64,000 bases of DNA from an uncultured delta proteobacterium (GCA_963812015.1 CAWETI010000003.1:1984001-2048000); one strand, 5' to 3'; counted from the stretch's first letter, positions 8,422-16,977 are shown. The notes: generated by a model from the letters alone, not told the origin. Program-made: numbers and translations.

Positions 8422-9030
8422 ATGAATGCTCAGGAACTGTTACAGGAAGTCAAAATGTCGGTGCTGGTCACGGTGGTCCTGGTAATCTTGTTATGCGGGG
8501 TTTACCCCCTGGTGGTGTGGGGCATTGCCCAAATAGCTTTTCCAAGTCAAGCCAACGGCTCTTTGGTGGCACGACAGGGTCAGGTTGTGGGCAGCGCCCT
8601 CATTGCCCAAAATTTTACCAGCCCGCAGTATTTCCACCCGCGACCCTCGGCTGCGGGCGACGTCAGCTATGACGGCACCAGCTCCGGCGGCAGCAACCTA
8701 GGGCCCCTGTCTCAAAAGCTCGTGGATCAAATAAAGGAACGCCTGGCCGCGTATCGGGCAGAAAACCATCTGGCCCCCAATATTCCCATCCCGGCGGATG
8801 CCGTAACCGCCTCCGGAAGCGGCCTGGACCCCCACATCAGCCTGAAAAATGCGGAGATCCAGGCAGCCCGGGTGGCAATCGCCCGGGGACTAAACCTGGA
8901 CCAGGTCGCTCAACTCATTGAGACCTGTATTGACGGCCCTGGCCTGGGTTTCCTGGGTGAGCCGGGGGTCAATGTACTCAGGGCCAACCTGGCCCTGGAC
9001 GCGCTGGCGAGTGGGTCCCATGGCGGATGA
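8422..9030 (+). CDS. kdpC: K+-transporting ATPase subunit C
   Basis: YFHPRPSAAG, SGGSNLGP, TASGSGLDPHIS. Confidence 0.96.
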   Translation: MNAQELLQEVKMSVLVTVVLVILLCGVYPLVVWGIAQIAFPSQANGSLVARQGQVVGSALIAQNFTSPQYFHPRPSAAGDVSYDGTSSGGSNLGPLSQKLVDQIKERLAAYRAENHLAPNIPIPADAVTASGSGLDPHISLKNAEIQAARVAIARGLNLDQVAQLIETCIDGPGLGFLGEPGVNVLRANLALDALASGSHGG

Positions 9031-10171
9031 TAAAGCCCTCAGCTTCCTGCGCCTGATCCGCCGCTCCCAACGCGGGAAGCTGAAGGTCTATCTGGGGTAC
9101 GGGGCGGGGGTGGGAAAAACCTGGCAGATGCTCAAGGAAGGGCAGCGCCTGGCAAAAGAGGGTGTCGATGTGGTCGTGGGCCTGGTGGAGACCCATGGCC
9201 GGGAAGAAACGGCCCAACTCATCGAGGGTCTGGAAGTCGTTCCCCGCCGGCAGGTGCAGTATCGCGGCATCACCATCGAGGAGATGGACCTGGAAGCGGT
9301 CCTGGCCCGTCGGCCCGAAGTCGCCCTGGTGGACGAACTGGCCCACACCAATGTACCCGGGAGTAAAAACGTCAAACGCTACCAAGATATCCAGGATCTG
9401 CTGGCCGCGGGCATTCACGTCATCAGCACCCTCAACGTCCAGCATCTCGAAAGCCTCTATGATACCGTGGAGGCCCAGATCGGGGTGAAAGTCCATGAGC
9501 GGGTCCCTGATTCCGTCATGGCCGAGGCCGATGAGATCGTCAACGTGGATTTGGCCCCGGAGGATTTGCAGCAGCGGCTTAGGGAGGGCAAGATTTACCC
9601 GCATGAGCGGATCTCCACGGCCTTGGAGAACTTTTTTACGCGCGCCAACCTCAATCAACTGCGGGAGTTGACGCTCCGGGAACTTGCTTCCCAGATCGAC
9701 CTCAAACGCCGGGGTGAACCTGACGAGGAACAGGATACCGCCCCGGATCAGGTCATGGTATGCCTGAGCTCCCGCGGCCCCAACAGCGCCGCCCTGTTAC
9801 GCTATGGCTCCCGGCTGGCCGGCCGTCTGAACCGGAACTGGTATGCGGTCTATGTGCAGACGTCCCGGGAAGAGCCTACCACCATCGACGCGACCACCCA
9901 ACGCCAGCTTTCAGATACCTTGACGCTGGCCAAGCAATTAGGCGCCCAGGTCTTTCCTTACAAGGGTGAGGATGTGGTGGCGACCATTTTGCACTTTGCC
10001 AGGGAATACCGGGTAGGACACATCGTGATCGGCAAACCGGGCCCGCTACCCGCCTGGAGACGCTGGCTTGGAGGGAAAACTATTGTGGAGCAATTAATCC
10101 ACCACGCCCATGGCGTCACCATTGTCGTAGTGGATACCGGTTCAAAACCGGAAAAGGAAGCATCTCAATAG
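9020..10171 (+). CDS. kdpD: KdpD N-terminal sensor plus USP domain, without transmembrane or kinase domains
   Basis: GKLKVYLGYGAGVGKT, DELAHTN, USP domain, then stop; ATG 9020 overlaps the kdpC end. Confidence 0.88.
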   Translation: MADDKALSFLRLIRRSQRGKLKVYLGYGAGVGKTWQMLKEGQRLAKEGVDVVVGLVETHGREETAQLIEGLEVVPRRQVQYRGITIEEMDLEAVLARRPEVALVDELAHTNVPGSKNVKRYQDIQDLLAAGIHVISTLNVQHLESLYDTVEAQIGVKVHERVPDSVMAEADEIVNVDLAPEDLQQRLREGKIYPHERISTALENFFTRANLNQLRELTLRELASQIDLKRRGEPDEEQDTAPDQVMVCLSSRGPNSAALLRYGSRLAGRLNRNWYAVYVQTSREEPTTIDATTQRQLSDTLTLAKQLGAQVFPYKGEDVVATILHFAREYRVGHIVIGKPGPLPAWRRWLGGKTIVEQLIHHAHGVTIVVVDTGSKPEKEASQ

Positions 10172-10242: not shown

Positions 10243-10882
10243 GGGTCTGTAAATAATTCTGTGTAAATGGTAATCAAAACACAGGAGGATTTACAGGTGA
10301 CGATCGACGATGAAATCATTCAGCAGCTCCAGGAAGACCTCAAGGAGTGCAAGTATATAGATGATCTCTTGGGGAAAGATGGAGCCATTAAGAAACTCAT
10401 CAAGAAGACCGTCGAGCGTATGCTGGACGCCGAACTGACCGAACGTCTGGGTTATGAGAAGCATTCCCCTTCAGGAAAGGGGGCCGGCAACAGCCGCAAT
10501 GGTTCCAGCGCCAAGACTTTAATGATGACGCTTTAAGGAAACTGTCGTATCTGTCGTACCGGGCGATAGACCCAAAATGGACGATGCCACTGCGCAACTG
10601 GCCGTTTATTATCTCGTAATTTTCGATTATGTTTGAGGGGAGGTTAGGGATGGCCTTGACGTAACTCGGTCAGCTTTTCGAGCCAGAGCCGAAGGAGCGC
10701 TTCTCTCGCCGGCGCCTGCCTACACATTAGCAGGAGCCAGGCCAGGCAGTCAAGGCCGAGCGCAGCGAGCCGTAGGGTTAGCCTTGACAGGCTGCCGGCT
10801 CATGCTATTTTCTCAAGGTAGAGGCGAGAGAGGAAATTCAAAACTCAGAAAAACCCATTTACACAAAAAATCTTACAGTCTC
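10243..10882 (+). mobile_element. Internally deleted IS256-family element with both terminal inverted repeats
   Basis: Left IR GGGTCTGTAAATAATTCTGTGTAAATGG and right IR CCATTTACACAAAAAATCTTACAGTCTC; transposase N-terminus (LDAELTERLGYEKH...NSRNG) joined to a C-terminal remnant (KWTMPLRNW...FSIMFEGRL). Confidence 0.82.
10267..10640 (+). pseudogene. IS256 transposase remnant (catalytic core deleted)
   Basis: 89-aa N-terminal ORF followed by a broken C-terminal fragment. Confidence 0.8.
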
Positions 10883-11066
10883 CCTTGACCGGATAATCTT
10901 CTTTGATTGGCGACATTAGTTTGTTCACCCGGCCATTCTCATAGACCACCACGGTTTCCACCAGGGCTGCCACGTCCTCGGGATCATGGGTTATGAGTAT
11001 GACCGGGATGGTAAACCGCTCTTTAATCTTCAAGAGTGCCTGGCGCATCTTGGCCCGCAGCAGGGT
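10845..11066 (-). pseudogene. 3' remnant of a ModC/CysA-like ABC ATPase
   Basis: LLRAKMRQALLKIKERFTIPVILITHDPEDVAALVETVVVYENGRV is the post-Walker-B/H-loop segment; no Walker A present. Confidence 0.65.
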
Positions 11067-12729
11067 CCTCTTGGATGAAAATCCCTTGGGCCCCGTCTAA
11101 ACGATACAGTCGATCAACGGCGAGGGCCGGATGGCGCTCATGGGTGAGAATCAAAATGGTTGCGGTACTTTTGCAAGCGTTGATGACCTCGGCAAGGAGT
11201 TTGCGTGCCCTGTCGTCGAGGTTTGACCATGGTTCATCGAGGATCATGATCGGCGATTCTCTCAAGAGCAGCCTGGCAATGCAAATCCGCTGCCTCTCAC
11301 CAGTGCTGGCCCCGATGCCGCGCGGGTCCATTACGGTTTCAATGCCCTGAGGCAAACGCGCCACAAAGTCCTTTAACTGGGCGCGTTCAAGGGCCTGGAA
11401 AATCTGTCGGTCACTCGCGTCCGGCTGCGCGATAAGGAGGTTGCCTCTCAGCGTCTCCTGGAAGATAAAGTAATTCTGGGTGACAACCCCAACTTTCCTC
11501 CGCAGCTCGGTGCGTGAAATCCGCCGGATGTCGATCCCGCCGATGGAGATGACTCCTTCCTGGGGTGCATAAAGGCGGAGGAGCAAATTGATGAGAGTGG
11601 ATTTGCCGCTTCCACTTTCGCCGCCAATGACGGTGACGGCATGGGCGGGAATGAGCAGGTGCGCCCGGTTGTAGAGCTGCCGCCCTCCCGGGTAACCGAA
11701 GGTTAGACTGGATAACTCGATGGCGACGGATTGGCTTGGCAGAGTTTCCGTGGGGTGGCTCTCTTCCGCCTCAGGGGCTTCAGCGAGAAATCCGGCCAGA
11801 TGTCGAATCCCGGTAAATTCGGTCTGCACGGTGGCCACCAACCTGGTGAGTTGGGTGACCGACATCTGCAAGAGGGTGGCATAAAAGAAAAAAAGCAAAA
11901 AAGGCTCGAGACCCATCTTACCGCGGGCGATGAGGTAATAGGCCAGGGCCACCAACCCTAAGCCGCCCAGTTGGGTGAGAAGCTCAATACCGGGGGAAAA
12001 CACCGAGAGCACCGCCCCGGCTCGTACAGAAAGCTTCTTCAGTCCGGTGGTGTGCTTCTGGAAATGTGCCGCTTGCTGCCTCTCGGCAGCCAGTACCTTG
12101 ACGGTGTCGATCCCCTGAATGGTTTCGTCGAAGACCCGCTGTATTTCGCTCCACGTGGCCCGCTGAGCCCTGGCATAAAAACCCATAATTCGGTTGAGGA
12201 CGGTCACGAGTATCGCGGTGATGCCCACGATGCCAAGGGCCGCAAGGGTAAGCGAGGCTGGGCAGAAATAAAAGAGCACGGCCGTCACCGCCAGAGCGGT
12301 GATGAGTTCGCGCCCGACACCGGGAAGAAAATCAGCGAAGAACCGCTGGGCCTGCGCAATATCACTGGTGAACTTGGTGAAAAATTCGCCGGCAGATTGC
12401 TTCTGGAAATAGAACAAGGGCAGGTGGCTTGCCTTATCGAAAAAATCGGTTTGAAGCTGCTTGAGCAGGTTGAAAGAAAAGACGGTGCCAGTATACCCGC
12501 TAATCCCTTGCAGCACTGCGATGGCCAGGAAGATCAGGGCTAGTTGCTCGAGCAAGGGCAGCCCCGAGGTCCAAAGATTGGCGTATTGGCCATTGATGGC
12601 AAGGCTTACCAGCTGTTGATAGTAGCGCGGCTGCAGCGCCATGAGCACCCCGCAGCCGAGCTGCACGATAACTAAGAGCGCCAAAGGGAAGCGATAGCGT
12701 GAGATGACGCCAGTTATCCAGGATCTCAT
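11023..12729 (-). CDS. ABC exporter (fused TMD plus ATPase), probable RiPP exporter
   Basis: Multi-TM N-terminus, GESGSGKST, degenerate signature ASTGERQR, ILDEP; ATGA overlap with the upstream rSAM gene; no C39 peptidase domain. Confidence 0.9.
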   Translation of the reverse strand: MRSWITGVISRYRFPLALLVIVQLGCGVLMALQPRYYQQLVSLAINGQYANLWTSGLPLLEQLALIFLAIAVLQGISGYTGTVFSFNLLKQLQTDFFDKASHLPLFYFQKQSAGEFFTKFTSDIAQAQRFFADFLPGVGRELITALAVTAVLFYFCPASLTLAALGIVGITAILVTVLNRIMGFYARAQRATWSEIQRVFDETIQGIDTVKVLAAERQQAAHFQKHTTGLKKLSVRAGAVLSVFSPGIELLTQLGGLGLVALAYYLIARGKMGLEPFLLFFFYATLLQMSVTQLTRLVATVQTEFTGIRHLAGFLAEAPEAEESHPTETLPSQSVAIELSSLTFGYPGGRQLYNRAHLLIPAHAVTVIGGESGSGKSTLINLLLRLYAPQEGVISIGGIDIRRISRTELRRKVGVVTQNYFIFQETLRGNLLIAQPDASDRQIFQALERAQLKDFVARLPQGIETVMDPRGIGASTGERQRICIARLLLRESPIMILDEPWSNLDDRARKLLAEVINACKSTATILILTHERHPALAVDRLYRLDGAQGIFIQEDPAAGQDAPGTLED

Positions 12730-13835
12730 GGCTCTGGGTTGGCGTGGGACTTTCTGTGCAGGTCTGCCAGGGCTCGATGGATTCTTGCAAATATGAGCTG
12801 ATAATCTTTGCAGAAAGGGTCCTTGGCCATATGGTCACCACAAAACACCAAGGCGTTGAGGGGGCACCCGCCGTGGCAGATTGACCAGTGCATACAGGTG
12901 TGACAGGCTGAAAGCGTCTCGGCTCGCCGCCGAATATCTTCACAAAAAGGTGAAGCCATCAATTCCTGGATTTCACGGTCGTGGATATTACCTAAGGGGT
13001 GGGTCTCAAACCGGCTGCACAGCACGGCATCCCCGGAGGGTTTCACTCCCAGGTGCGACCCGACACAGGTGCCTTGCTGCTGGCATTCGTAAGGCACACC
13101 ACCAAGAATTGCCTCCAGGTACAGGTCCAGAGGCGACACTGTGACCCGCTGGCGTTCCGTACTGGCCCATTCGTCGAATAAGCGGCAAAGAAATGAGCCA
13201 TATTCCCCTGGCTGAAGCAAGGATGGTGTAGAGCTCTCTGGGTTGCTTCCCGGAATCATCGGGTTAACGCGGAAACCGTACCCGAGGCCCTGAAAGTACT
13301 GGTAGATTTCCTGCTCCTGACCCAGGCTCCGCCGGCTAACGACCGCGTTGAACCCCGCTGACACGCCCTGTTCTTCCAAAAGGCGAACTTTCCCCAAAAC
13401 CGCCGCGTGGCTTCCCTGCCCATCTGCACCGATTCGCATCGAGTCGTGCAAGACTTGGGGGCCGTCGAGGCTAATACCAATCTGGAACTCGTGGTCACGG
13501 AAAAAGGCACAAAAGTCATAATCGAGGAGCAGGCTGTTGGTCTGGAGATAATGATGGAATCTCAGGTCCGAGGCAAGCCCGTCAAGAATTTTCATCGCCG
13601 CCCTGAAGAACCCGAGGCCCGCCAGGAGGGGTTCTCCCCCGTGCCAGAGGATATGGATTTCCCTGAACCCATGGCGCTCGGCATAGCGGGCCGTTTTTTC
13701 CAAAGCCGTCTGCAGCGTCTGCCGGCTCATGACGCCGGTCCCGGCACCGTCCGAATAGCAATATCGGCAGCTTAGATTGCAGCGCTTCACCGGCTCCAGG
13801 ATAAGGGTGAAGGCGTCGTTGGCATCAACCGGCAT
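12726..13835 (-). CDS. Radical SAM/SPASM peptide maturase 2 (anSME-like)
   Basis: CNLSCRYC, WHGGEPLL, SPASM cysteines (ECQQQGTC...C...CHTCMHWSICHGGCP...DPFC). Confidence 0.9.
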   Translation of the reverse strand: MPVDANDAFTLILEPVKRCNLSCRYCYSDGAGTGVMSRQTLQTALEKTARYAERHGFREIHILWHGGEPLLAGLGFFRAAMKILDGLASDLRFHHYLQTNSLLLDYDFCAFFRDHEFQIGISLDGPQVLHDSMRIGADGQGSHAAVLGKVRLLEEQGVSAGFNAVVSRRSLGQEQEIYQYFQGLGYGFRVNPMIPGSNPESSTPSLLQPGEYGSFLCRLFDEWASTERQRVTVSPLDLYLEAILGGVPYECQQQGTCVGSHLGVKPSGDAVLCSRFETHPLGNIHDREIQELMASPFCEDIRRRAETLSACHTCMHWSICHGGCPLNALVFCGDHMAKDPFCKDYQLIFARIHRALADLHRKSHANPEP

Positions 13836-15090
13836 TGGCGAGCTCCCGCCGGACGGCTTCCCGCAGGTGGTGACGGAAAGTCCTCAATCCCTCACAGAAG
13901 TACGTCTCCCCCCGGACCTCATCCCAAGCGGGGGGGAGAACGGCGTCGGCCCAGCGGTTGTCAGGCAGCCCCTCTGAGCGGGCGCGGAGCAGCATAGCAT
14001 TGTATTTCATGCAGGTGAAACACCCCCCGCCACACTGCTGGCCCCATTCACAGCCTCCACAGGCCATGTGTTTCCCGGACCGCCGAATCCTCTGCTTAAT
14101 CTTTTCCCACAGGACGGCCTTGTTCGTTAAAATGGTAGCCAGAGAATCCTGGTGGATATCTCCCAGGGCCGTCTGCTCATCATTCACCCATTGGTCACAG
14201 CTGAACACCCTGCCATTGGGGGCAAAAATAAGGCGCCGGAAGTCGCACCGTTTCTTGTGGAATGGGTCGCCCAGCTTGATTTCCGGCTGCAGGACCATCT
14301 TGACTTCTTGCCGCAATTCTTTGAAATCCACCTGCCCCTCCTGGTCCCAGAACCAGAGATCAAACAATTCGATCAGAAACCGTCCCACTTCTTCCGGCAG
14401 TGGGGCAAGGTCTGACAACCCTGAAACCTCGCCGGCCTCCGGGATCAGGTCCAGCCAGCGCACATCATAGATGTCCAGCTGGACCTCTGCTCTCAATTTC
14501 TTGAAGAATTCAAACAGGTCGAAAGCGCGGTCGATGCTCGCCCGGGTAACCACGGCAATCACTGCCACGCGGTCTGCCATGGCGTGACGGCGGTAATGTT
14601 CAATGCCACGCAGGGTGGCATCAAAAGACCCGGCGCGCGAGCCTGGAGAGCACCGGTACCGATCGTGAATCTCCTTGGGCCCATCGAGGCTGAAGCCCAC
14701 CTGAAATTGATATTCGCCGAGCAATCGAGCCATATCCTCGCTCATGAGGGTCCCGTTGGTCTGAATCCGGTTTTCAAAAGAAAGCTCAGGATACTGAGCC
14801 TCGAGACGGATGATGGCGCGAAAAAAATCGCTGCCCGCCAGCAGGGGCTCGCCGCCGTGCCAGTAGATCTGCATTACCTTGGTGAGAGGATCAACGGTCA
14901 GATTATGGGCGATGACGCGGCGCAGAATCGTCTCAACCGTAGAGAGGGCGATAATACCCCCGGAATGCTCCTGGAAGCAATACCCACACGCCAGGTTGCA
15001 GTTCCGAGTTACCTGGATTTGGGGCACCACCGGTAGACGTTTTTCCCAATCGGGACCGCATGGTTGTATAAGGGAGAGATTTTCCGTCAT
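13825..15090 (-). CDS. Radical SAM/SPASM peptide maturase 1 (anSME-like)
   Basis: CNLACGYC, WHGGEPLL, QTNG, SLDGP, SPASM cysteines (RC...FSC...CGGCEWGQQCGGGCFTC...YFC). Confidence 0.9.
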   Translation of the reverse strand: MTENLSLIQPCGPDWEKRLPVVPQIQVTRNCNLACGYCFQEHSGGIIALSTVETILRRVIAHNLTVDPLTKVMQIYWHGGEPLLAGSDFFRAIIRLEAQYPELSFENRIQTNGTLMSEDMARLLGEYQFQVGFSLDGPKEIHDRYRCSPGSRAGSFDATLRGIEHYRRHAMADRVAVIAVVTRASIDRAFDLFEFFKKLRAEVQLDIYDVRWLDLIPEAGEVSGLSDLAPLPEEVGRFLIELFDLWFWDQEGQVDFKELRQEVKMVLQPEIKLGDPFHKKRCDFRRLIFAPNGRVFSCDQWVNDEQTALGDIHQDSLATILTNKAVLWEKIKQRIRRSGKHMACGGCEWGQQCGGGCFTCMKYNAMLLRARSEGLPDNRWADAVLPPAWDEVRGETYFCEGLRTFRHHLREAVRRELANAG

Positions 15091-15182
15091 GGAAATGCAC
15101 AGGAATTTGAGGCACTGGACGTATTCTACAGTTTGGGAAAGTCTAATGCCAGGTGAGTTGCGTGATCAAAATACTGCACACT

Positions 15183-15288
15183 AGAGGCCTTTCAAAACTC
15201 TGAGCGAAGCGAAGAATCTAAATTTTCAAATACATAGACCTTTCGCTGCGCTCAGGGTGAGAGAAAAAAAGCGGTTTTGCAATGATTG
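15183..15288. repeat. Palindromic miniature element, copy 1 (partly truncated)
   Basis: TTTCAAAAC...CTGAGCGAAGCGAAG...TTTCGCTGCGCTCAG...GGTTTTGCAA; related copies at 24178 and 43723. Confidence 0.7.
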
Positions 15289-15294
15289 CTAATA

Positions 15295-15480
15295 TCACGT
15301 CCACCAATTGAACCAGTTGTGCCAGTTGGACCAGTTGTGCCAATTCCTCCAGTTGCGCCAATTCCCCCAGTTGCCCCAGAATGGGAATCCTACCCGCCTC
15401 TTCTTTTCCTGGCGGATTTCCTCCAGGAGTTCACGGAGGATCTTGTTCTTAACTTTTGTACCTTGAAGAATCCCAGCCAT
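15295..15480 (-). CDS. Putative RiPP precursor peptide, 61 aa, with a (WxN)8-WWT core
   Basis: GAGGAGG RBS before ATG 15480; MAGILQGTKVKNKILRELLEEIRQEKKRRVGFPF-WGNWGNWRNWRNWHNWSNWHNWFNWWT*; directly upstream of two rSAM/SPASM genes and an exporter. Confidence 0.85.
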   Translation of the reverse strand: MAGILQGTKVKNKILRELLEEIRQEKKRRVGFPFWGNWGNWRNWRNWHNWSNWHNWFNWWT

Positions 15481-15697
15481 GGCGTCCTCCTCACTATCTC
15501 GATCTCGGCGGAAAGGCATTTCCGTAAGTTAGGTAGTTGATTCCTTCCGGTCCTTTGATAGAGTGCCCCGGGACATTACAGGTCGCTTCCAGTTTTTGCG
15601 GAGCGTTTTTAAAATTGGCATCCGTGGTTATTCCCGGATTAGGCACCGCAATTTTCTTGGCTCTCGATTTTATCGGGTTATTCTTTCTCCCTGGATT

Positions 15698-16162
15698 CTA
15701 TTTAACAATTGGGATACATACCTTTGGCATACATTTCATGCGCCAGCGCTCCATGGCCACCAGATAATTACCTTGCTGGACCGGGCTCATTTGGGCCAAT
15801 TCCTCGTTCAGCTGATTCCTAAAAGAAGCAAACAACTTAGCCTGCGCGGCCGTGTAAGCCTTTACCAGATCTTTGACCTTCGCCTCGTCAGGCTTGGGCG
15901 CTGCTAAGGCGGCCTGCAAATCCTCCCAAGATTTCTTCGATTCGTCGACGATATCTCCGCGCATTGACGAATATTTTGCTTCCAACGCTTCAACCGCCTT
16001 TTCTTTATCCGGGGCAACCTTCAATTCTTTGAGCGTCTGCGCTTTATAGTCCTTGAGCTGTTTCCCCAGCTCCTCATCCGTCTGACCCAGGGCGGGAACC
16101 ACCAGCAGAAAGCTCAAGATGGTGGAGAGTGCCCCCAGTTTGAAAATGAGCTTACCTTTCAT
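15698..16162 (-). CDS. Periplasmic Spy/CpxP/ZraP-like helical protein
   Basis: Signal peptide (MKGKLIFK...VVPALG), helical body with LAAPKPDEAKVKDLV and LAQMSPVQQ (LTxxQ-like); AGGAGG RBS before ATG 16162. Confidence 0.7.
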   Translation of the reverse strand: MKGKLIFKLGALSTILSFLLVVPALGQTDEELGKQLKDYKAQTLKELKVAPDKEKAVEALEAKYSSMRGDIVDESKKSWEDLQAALAAPKPDEAKVKDLVKAYTAAQAKLFASFRNQLNEELAQMSPVQQGNYLVAMERWRMKCMPKVCIPIVK

Positions 16163-16932
16163 TTTATCCTCCTTTTGAAAAGATGCTGGGCATATAGTGT
16201 GCTGCACTTAGCGTACTTGAAAGGTTGCTGGTGGCAGTGGCACCTGCTTTATCCTGACGCCCTGCCTTGCCCTTACCCCGCCGCCAATCCTTGCGGTCCG
16301 TCTGTTCCCTTCCAGGTAGGATATCTATTTAAAGCACAAACTTGGTAAAGCCGTCAAGTAAATTATGGGGAAATTTCTTGCATCAGGGGCGAGAGTGTAA
16401 TCCCGGACTTTGGGTTTCCAGGGGAAAAATCTTCAGGATAGAGCGGTTGACGTGGCAGACGGTTTGGCGAATAGTGGACGCCAGGAGGATTAGGTTCGGG
16501 GCCGTCAGGCAGGGGCAGACAATTTGCCGCGGGCAATTGCAATGAATGTCTTGACCCTTCATCTAGCGAAGTTAAGAACTTCGCATATCCAGATCATCTC
16601 TAGCCCGAGATTATGCAGCAACCTTGGCCTCCGCAATCCAAAGAAGGTTTTTGGGACCTCTTGCCCAGAAAACATCCCCCAAAGTTTCTGTTCTTGAAGC
16701 CGAATTCTCTCGTCGACCCCATGATAGCAAAAGTTTCCTTGAAAAAATCGATAGCCATATCTGTCTCCCAGGGAAGCGATTTCTGTACAAGTTTTGTACA
16801 AAATGCCTTCCCTGGATAAATTATAATATATTGTTATTATTTGTAAATATCCGGGGGGAAATGGGGCTTTCGAATGGCTAAAAAGGGCCCCTGAAGTGCA
16901 GCAGCCATCAACCTCTGGGCAGGGACTCTTTT

Positions 16933-16977
16933 ATGGCATTCAAGGGGTCAGAGGTTCAAGTCCCCTCAGCTCCACCA
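16933..16977 (+). other. 3' half of tRNA-Ala(GGC): candidate att site (island boundary)
   Basis: ATGGCATTCAAGGGGTCAGAGGTTCAAGTCCCCTCAGCTCCACCA has anticodon loop, T-arm and CCA end, but no D-arm or 5' acceptor strand. Confidence 0.8.

Follow-up and report, generated by a model that had tools for sequence, protein, structure and literature searches.

What does a bacterium make from a very short open reading frame (ORF) that ends in an unbroken row of W-x-N triplets and lies beside two radical S-adenosylmethionine (SAM) enzymes and an exporter? This question is raised by a stretch of 64,000 nucleotides (nt) from an uncultured delta proteobacterium (GCA_963812015.1 CAWETI010000003.1:1984001-2048000), referred to here as the window, in which a preliminary description, drawn up from the sequence alone, had proposed a new system for a peptide that is synthesized on the ribosome and modified posttranslationally (a RiPP). 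All the elements that it had named, that is, a 61-amino-acid (aa) ORF, two radical SAM/SPASM genes, and an ABC (ATP-binding cassette) exporter, exist where it had placed them. We found that the locus is a real, conserved, and mobile RiPP cassette of five genes. By analogy with characterized enzymes, the reading that we favor, with moderate confidence, is that this cassette gives rise to an exported peptide in which three-residue cyclophanes, each from Trp to Asn, follow one another in a row.

The five genes encode a Spy/CnrX-like protein (up169), the precursor peptide, the radical SAM/SPASM enzymes rSAM1 and rSAM2, and the exporter, and within the window all of them are carried on the minus strand, as are the other elements described in this paragraph. 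The preliminary description had rightly seen four co-oriented genes, but it had missed both the strand and the fifth gene, up169. The 61-aa precursor, recognized by reading the ORF and by its homologues, occupies positions 15480 to 15295, with its ATG at 15480 and its stop codon at 15297-15295. The strong ribosome-binding site that had been noted is a Shine-Dalgarno sequence, GGAGGA (15490-15485), read directly from the sequence 4 nt 5' of this ATG. A noncoding spacer of 204 nt with a long hairpin, predicted by RNA folding (15294-15091), leads to rSAM1 (421 aa, 15090-13825), which is followed by rSAM2 (369 aa, 13835-12726) and the ABC half-transporter (568 aa, 12729-11023). The stop of rSAM1 and the start of rSAM2 overlap by 11 nt, and an ATGA (4-nt overlap) joins the stop of rSAM2 to the start of the exporter gene, confirming the overlapping codons described earlier and pointing to translational coupling in an operon. 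The fifth gene, up169 (16162/16207-15698), was assigned by Pfam, by an AlphaFold2 (AF2) model searched with Foldseek, and by synteny. Metatranscriptome contigs in four of four runs (four studies of wetland or sediment) cover the exporter, rSAM2, and rSAM1 genes at 92 to 99% likeness, a weak hint that the cassette is expressed, since such libraries can hold DNA; the contigs cannot rank genes, and nothing can be read from their thin coverage of the precursor and of the Spy-like gene.

The precursor begins with M-A-G...VKNKILRELLEEIRQEKKRRVGFPF and then runs through WGN, WGN, WRN, WRN, WHN, WSN, WHN, WFN, and WWT. Its core (W35-T61, 27 residues) thus consists of exactly nine in-phase triads, eight W-x-N and a final WWT, in agreement with the (WxN)8 peptide of the preliminary description. 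The leader (M1 to V30) includes a predicted helix box, VLRELLEEIRQE. The junction between leader and core, FP[FY]WGNW, is invariant (F32-P33-x-W35-G36 in the alignment of homologous clusters), its FP[FY] triad is in phase with the W-x-N lattice, and the C-terminal WW[T/N] is conserved as well. A longer, 74-aa reading from position 15519 was rejected, since the homologues favor the 61-aa start. The precursor has no match in Pfam or NCBIfam, and genome G000 contains no second WxN precursor anywhere.

The peptide belongs to a sizable family. A word-indexed search retrieved 46 homologous precursor clusters, in which the leader is conserved and nonrepetitive, and a precursor was found at 79 loci, corresponding to 64 unique sequences, of which the intact members hold 5 to 10 W-x-N units. 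When 1.84 billion representative proteins were searched with a profile, 71 matched at an E value of ≤0.001, about 50 of them short peptides (37 to 85 aa) of the same design, with [KR]N.VL.EI..E..., FP[FHY]W, (x-N-W)n, and often an NWW[T/N] end. Tandem Repeats Finder detects a period of 9 nt in the precursor repeat. Among 18 distinct coding sequences of 61 codons, however, the Trp and Asn positions are 78 to 100% conserved (most of them 100%), the Asn codons swap synonymously between AAC and AAT, and the middle x positions are hypervariable, with up to seven different residues. This combination reflects purifying selection on the protein pattern and not a drifting DNA repeat. Two precursor homologues on metagenome contigs (L148 and L157) have long aberrant tails (e.g., ...SYRCNRSNRSNRC...), which correspond to the repeat in another frame and hence point to frameshifted alleles or to sequencing slips in the 9-nt repeat.

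To describe the gene order around this precursor, we used the loci recovered by tblastn of the window proteins (68 metagenome, 12 genome, and two genome-contig loci), counting only those with enough DNA and dropping the window's own locus and one duplicate. The enzyme rSAM1 lies directly downstream of the precursor at all 50 of 50 loci, rSAM2 comes next at 33 of 34 (the miss is L167), and the exporter follows rSAM2 at 17 of 17, which bears out the conserved RiPP-type cassette that had been proposed. Directly upstream of the precursor, up169 is found at 59 of 69 loci; all ten loci that lack it form a distant subgroup, in which the four-gene core is kept at about 51%, 43%, and 47% identity. In one member of this subgroup (L165), eight of nine neighboring ORFs are without a Pfam match, and no protease was found among them. 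By tblastx, the conserved block extends over approximately 11,040 to 16,360 of the window, and the flanks differ between genomes.

Both enzymes are SPASM radical SAM proteins, matching the Pfam Radical_SAM and SPASM models above cutoff. In rSAM1, the CX3CX2C motif is formed by C31/35/38, GGEP lies at residues 79 to 82, and the canonical seven-Cys SPASM set comprises C282, C298, C344, C347, C353, C357, and C399; aligned to the anaerobic sulfatase-maturating enzyme (anSME), rSAM1 lacks only the equivalent of Cys255. In rSAM2, the corresponding motifs are C19/23/26 and GGEP at 66 to 69, together with eight anSME-type auxiliary-cluster Cys residues (C251, C257, C273, C311, C314, C320, C324, and C342). 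These motifs and the SPASM Cys residues are 93 to 100% conserved among 106 rSAM1 and 101 rSAM2 homologues, so that both enzymes look catalytically competent. Neither contains a RiPP recognition element (RRE) domain, and the rSAM1 model shows no additional RRE-like domain. Among solved proteins, both are closest to anSME (E values of 1e-29 to 1e-33) and to ChlB, a triceptide synthase. The AF2 model of rSAM1 (pLDDT 89.5) retrieved anSME (4k37, E value of 1e-20) and ChlB (9gm3, E value of 4.5e-20) with Foldseek and superposes on them with TM scores of 0.72/0.82 and 0.69/0.76, respectively. Both enzymes can thus be described as anSME/ChlB-like, which upholds the anSME-like character noted at the outset. 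In public databases, their homologues are named "radical SAM protein," "uncharacterized protein," or, occasionally, "anaerobic sulfatase-maturating enzyme," and the ESM Atlas offers generic names only. Genome G000 encodes two further anSME-like SPASM radical SAM paralogues (C2:837957-839036 and C3:1141731-1142765), 28 to 31% identical to the cassette enzymes; counterparts of the C2 paralogue are present in many cassette-free genomes of the order.

In NCBIfam, rSAM1 and rSAM2 fall below every family cutoff. The best families are DynA (NF041298, cutoff of 450 bits), on which rSAM2 scores 257.1 (E value of 2e-76, full length) and rSAM1 179, and anSME (TIGR03942, cutoff of 349.45 bits), with 230.6 and 180.9 bits, respectively. 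The scores on GrrM/OscB (TIGR04261, cutoff of 310 bits) are 134.1 for rSAM2 and 119.6 for rSAM1. On the remaining families, rSAM1 and rSAM2 reach, in this order, 78 and 88 bits for XyeB (TIGR04496, cutoff of 450), 93 and 122 for FxsB (TIGR04269, 370), 108 and 138 for YhhB (NF041707, 445), 101 and 128 for AmcB (NF041718, 425), and 115 and 92.5 for DarE (NF038005, 650). In a maximum-likelihood tree of 43 sequences, which has long branches and includes no DynA, DarE, or XyeB references, rSAM1 (support of 100/100), rSAM2 (95/88), and GrrM/OscB (100/100) form three separate clades. The enzymes are therefore not members of GrrM/OscB, FxsB, or XyeB, the triceptide maturases named as examples in the preliminary description, given that the hidden Markov model scores are far below the cutoffs and that neither enzyme falls in the GrrM clade. 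The rSAM1 and rSAM2 clades are also not sisters, so that the pair is not a recent tandem duplication. Their pairwise identities are correlated (r = 0.99 for 406 pairs from 29 loci and r = 0.88 for 302 close pairs, values that are inflated by kinship), and the two genes are inherited together.

The exporter contains only an ABC_membrane domain (residues 17 to 291) and an ABC_tran domain (355 to 501); Pfam detects no C39 peptidase domain, so the claim of a peptidase-free exporter stands. Its NCBIfam matches are all below cutoff, the best being MsbA and CydD, and on the models of peptidase-containing bacteriocin exporters (TIGR01193 and NHLM types) it scores 164 to 179 bits, far below the cutoffs. 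For up169, the likely true start is MKGKLIFKL at position 16162 (154 aa), with the signal peptide ending in ...VPALG|Q. The protein passes the Pfam Metal_resist model narrowly (30.1 bits versus a cutoff of 29.2) and matches NCBIfam CpxP with an E value of 0.006. Its AF2 model is a helical bundle (pLDDT 79.2), whose top Foldseek matches are CnrX, NccX, ZraP, CpxP, and Spy, all of them weak (E values of 0.03 to 0.4, none ≤0.001). Judging from these models, up169 is likely a secreted helical protein of the CnrX/ZraP/CpxP/Spy-like type. Several paralogues of up169 occur in these genomes, and the cluster-linked copies make up the top group: they are at least 53% identical (at least 59% in 16 of 17 genomes), versus at most 56% for the other paralogues. 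In one complete genome (L199; G038:C1, ~1182.9-1183.3 kb), up169 is frameshifted and the other cassette genes are intact; given this case and its absence from the distant subgroup, up169 is accessory rather than essential.

By analogy with characterized maturases, we infer the following order of action for the cyclophane reading. The ribosome would make the 61-aa precursor, whose helical leader (VLRELLEEIRQE...RRVxFP[FY]) would deliver the nine-unit core to the two RRE-less anSME/ChlB-type enzymes. At least one of these would abstract a hydrogen from the Asn C-beta and join the radical so formed at this carbon to the indole of the Trp that stands two residues upstream, and repetition along the lattice could create up to eight or nine three-residue cyclophanes. 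In view of its DynA score, rSAM2 is the most probable cross-linker. The also catalytically equipped rSAM1 may take a share of the sites (the WWT at the end, for example, or the junction at FP[FY]) or may add a second type of bond. The ABC half-transporter would then move the product across the inner membrane, and an unlinked protease, encoded elsewhere, would remove the leader. In characterized triceptides, cleavage occurs just before the first cyclophane motif, and Pro often marks the site (PMC12912966); the cassette precursor has a Pro two residues before its first Trp. A possible role for the secreted CnrX/Spy-like protein is to bind or buffer, in the periplasm, a product that would be very hydrophobic.

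Several points weigh against this reading. No cyclophane family gives either enzyme a score that reaches its curated cutoff, and both score about as high on anSME, an enzyme that oxidizes Ser or Cys and does not cross-link. Neither enzyme clade nests within GrrM/OscB, and the leader has no detectable homology to GrrA-type leaders. The conserved block contains no protease gene, and the Spy-like gene is missing from the distant subgroup and frameshifted in one complete genome. In addition, a single enzyme suffices in all characterized WxN systems of the literature consulted, so that plain cyclophane formation does not explain the need for two.

An alternative is that rSAM1 and rSAM2 form an obligate complex like TrnC/TrnD in thuricin CD, both being needed to hold the precursor and one of them cross-linking Trp to Asn. 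The strict colocation of the two genes with their 11-nt overlap, their tightly correlated evolution (r = 0.99), and the absence of an RRE domain from both proteins fit such a complex, but the 93 to 100% conservation of catalytic and cluster residues in more than 100 homologues of each argues that both do chemistry, and we consider this arrangement unlikely. Another alternative is that the two enzymes place two bond types on one repeat, for instance, C-C cyclophanes from Trp to Asn together with ether, C-N, or Trp-Trp links from unit to unit, producing a fused or laddered, darobactin-like polycycle. The ancient separation of the two clades, with no recent duplication, points in this direction, as do the conserved C-terminal WW[TN] and FP[FY]W junction; furthermore, since W and N are the sole conserved residues of a unit, a second enzyme has few other targets, and the related DarE and DynA make C-O, C-C, and C-N links. 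However, DarE alone makes both of its bond types, so that two enzymes would not be required, and the cassette enzymes score low on the DarE model (115 and 92.5 bits versus 650). We regard two bond types as somewhat less probable still than the obligate complex.

A more specific version, to which we likewise attach only a small probability, is that one of the two anciently diverged enzymes makes Trp-Asn cyclophanes and the other inter-unit links, which would turn the 27-residue core into a rigid, continuous, ladder-like polycycle. This product might mimic an extended beta-strand on outer membrane targets, in the way that darobactin, dynobactin, and the xenorceptides, all of them much shorter, act on BamA, and the coinherited Spy/CnrX-like protein would serve for self-protection. 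If true, such a ladder would be of a kind without precedent in the literature searched. Finally, the idea that the locus is no RiPP system at all, the small ORF being a translated-looking DNA repeat and the enzymes anSMEs or other housekeeping SPASM proteins, could draw on the detectable 9-nt tandem repeat, on the place of the anSME model among the top matches of both enzymes (180.9 and 230.6 bits), and on the anSME name that some sources give to homologues, but it is very improbable because both enzymes are under the anSME cutoff of 349 bits, the conserved block contains no sulfatase, and the small ORF, always directly upstream of the enzymes, has a strong ribosome-binding site, a conserved nonrepetitive leader, and codon-level purifying selection on its W and N residues.

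The spacer between the precursor and rSAM1 may add a layer of regulation to the cassette. In the window, it folds into a hairpin, CUGAGCGCAGCGAAAGG...CUUCGCUUCGCUCAG (−54.2 kcal/mol, z = −3.3), which may be an attenuator or a processing site; that it sets the ratio of precursor to enzyme transcript is speculative. The last ~95 nt of the spacer are conserved in all relatives. Most relatives (L129:8184-8501, L194:1167-1500, and 12 other loci) have a spacer of ~330 nt that is highly conserved and noncoding, in which long inverted repeats are nested (CCCCTTTCCTAAAGGGGG...) and no ORF is conserved; of the 72 pairs that RNAalifold predicts for it, only 7 have compensatory changes. The window, L124, L128, and L156 share a different spacer type of 207 to 388 nt (207 to 230 nt in three of the four) with a hairpin of its own.

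The distribution of the cassette is patchy. Of the 82 other species genomes of the host order, 17 hold an intact rSAM1 orthologue (74 to 94% identity), or 18 when G016, whose rSAM1 is in three pieces, is included, and these genomes represent one family and five genera. In a sample of 401 genomes from the phylum, matches are confined to that family, where 3 of 12 genomes have them in addition to the window's own. Cassette relatives turn up frequently in metagenomes from wetlands and sediments, and close relatives are labeled Syntrophobacterales, Syntrophales, or Deltaproteobacteria, consistent with the Desulfobacterota-like host that had been suspected. Because the repeat-bearing precursor may break assemblies, counts based on absence probably underestimate the cassette. 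In G016, a genome that is 56% complete, rSAM1 is split over three frames (C10:818-2079); this split and the frameshift of up169 in L199 represent either decay of the cassette or assembly errors. Another genome, G013, has a cluster-type Spy-like copy (C3:127364-127864; 75% identical) 141 bp from a contig end and no rSAM1 orthologue.

The surroundings of the cassette in the window bear on how it arrived. Beyond the exporter gene lie an ORF of only 417 aa with a KdpD sensor domain (8918-10171) and an 89-aa fragment of an IS256/Mutator-family transposase (10267-10536); directly against the exporter end, the last 67 aa of an ABC ATPase are left over (10845-11048). This arrangement suggests that the cassette came in by an insertion truncating older genes. 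On the other side, about 570 bp beyond the cassette, a 45-nt copy of the 3' half of tRNA-Ala(GGC) (16933-16977; 98% identical; source at C3:~1439245-1439320) looks like an attachment-site scar. A transfer-messenger RNA (tmRNA) candidate at 16863-16977 on the plus strand, the sole match to Rfam, scored 21 bits versus a gathering score of 47; we rejected it since its 3' part is the tRNA-Ala copy and ARAGORN finds no gene there. Genome G000 has two tmRNA genes of equal length (C3:1901-2247 and C5:25265-25611) with the tag ADNYGYALAA, probably an assembly duplicate, which fits an estimated contamination of 5.7%.

Darobactin, dynobactin, and the xenorceptides, antibiotics that target BamA, are three-residue cyclophane peptides, and new lineages of cyclophane enzymes and precursors are sought after for this reason. 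A gap-free lattice of eight or nine cyclophane motifs, in each of which the middle residue can vary freely, would lend itself naturally as a scaffold for libraries. As both maturase lineages fall outside every curated family, they could mean a new regiochemistry or a second bond type, and their arrangement could reveal how a repetitive substrate is shared or passed on between cyclophane synthases; the conserved periplasmic partner is a further feature of interest. Given the patchy distribution of the cassette and its relatives in wetlands and sediments, it may matter for interactions among syntrophic anaerobes.

To place the cassette among known systems, we scanned one genome per species for four or more contiguous WxN codons. 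This yielded at least 123 loci; among the matches listed, many are no more than in-frame readings of simple DNA repeats, and at least 30 are genuine precursors of 79 to 153 aa that end in spacer-free WxN repeats. The genuine precursors listed come from Alphaproteobacteria, Acidobacteriota, Cyanobacteria, Methylococcales, and Burkholderiales, and each adjoins a single radical SAM gene whose product is 24 to 34% identical to the cassette enzymes. All six of the six such enzymes tested score 400 to 543 bits on TIGR04261 and are thus GrrM/OscB. In PMC11002830, which summarizes Nguyen et al. (2020), OscB is described as forming cyclophanes from Trp C7 to the C-beta of Asn or Asp. Given this pairing and this chemistry, both spacer-free WxN repeats and a poly-cyclophane Trp peptide are known ideas. 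The novelty claimed in the preliminary description hence does not extend to the repeats, but it holds for the combination of leader, two maturases, and exporter, for which our searches gave no match. In the literature searched, we found no description of the precursor family or of a WxN cluster with two radical SAM enzymes, with the qualification that the supplementary lists of the triceptide papers in Nat Chem (2020) and JACS (2022) may include the family; the motif strings have no occurrence in the supplements of PMC10288494 and PMC11499958.

The wider class is that of the triceptides, defined, according to PMC11002830 and PMC11499958, by aromatic-X-X motifs with a link from the aromatic residue to a C-beta, with about 3,900 putative pathways (PMC11499958). 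As had been proposed, the W-x-N core fits this rule, and the cassette has the hallmark of the class, an aromatic-X-X precursor beside an RRE-less radical SAM/SPASM enzyme. With OscA/OscB (GrrA/GrrM), it shares a C-terminal, spacer-free W-x-N core, which hhalign aligns over 33 columns at 98.5% probability, and an RRE-less SPASM radical SAM enzyme adjoining the precursor. In contrast, it has two enzymes instead of one, in clades separate from GrrM/OscB and scoring 120 to 134 bits versus a cutoff of 310, a precursor of 53 to 66 aa without a signal-like N terminus versus 79 to 153 aa, and an additional ABC exporter and Spy-like gene. The leaders cannot be aligned: the precursor has no match to GrrA/OscA1 (TIGR04260, cutoff of 31 bits) at an E value of ≤0.01, and leader homology to GrrA/OscA was rejected since the hhalign alignment covers the core columns only.

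DynA is the best family for rSAM2; it makes a Trp-to-Asn C-beta C-C bond, and dynobactin needs a transporter. According to the review (PMC11002830), the enzyme of dynobactin joins Trp C6 with Asn(i+3) at its C-beta and forms, in addition, a C-N bond between His and Tyr. The differences are that rSAM2 is below the DynA cutoff of 450 bits, that dynobactin is described in the review as a single 10-mer core linked from i to i+3 whereas the cassette repeats W-x-N eight times with a period of 3, and that the host is not an enterobacterium. The aromatic-X-X substrate rule is shared with XyeB/XncB, ChlB, HtkB, HaaB, and other triceptide synthases of the three-residue cyclophane-forming enzyme (3-CyFE) type. 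Among these, ChlB is the second closest solved structure to the cassette enzymes, and, according to PMC11002830, XncB connects Trp C6 with the C-beta of Arg or Asn at residues i and i+2, acting on WxN. The Gly-Gly leader, protease, HlyD, and peptidase-ABC exporter of Xye clusters are all lacking from the cassette.

The anSME structures (PDB 4K36-4K39) are the closest in fold to both enzymes, and rSAM2 has the identical eight auxiliary-cluster Cys residues. The cassette enzymes differ in being below the family cutoff and in having a dedicated small precursor instead of a sulfatase substrate gene. Thuricin CD, with TrnC/TrnD, likewise uses two adjacent active radical SAM enzymes in one pathway, but it is a sactipeptide with thioether chemistry and two precursors from a Firmicute, so that the likeness is one of analogy only. 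Taken together, by analogy with these systems, the chemistry class, triceptide-like Trp-Asn cyclophanes, is probably a known one, while neither the lineage of precursor and enzymes nor the two-enzyme architecture seems to have been described. The cassette is set apart by its short leader, its two maturase lineages outside the curated families, its peptidase-free exporter, and its Spy/CnrX-like partner.

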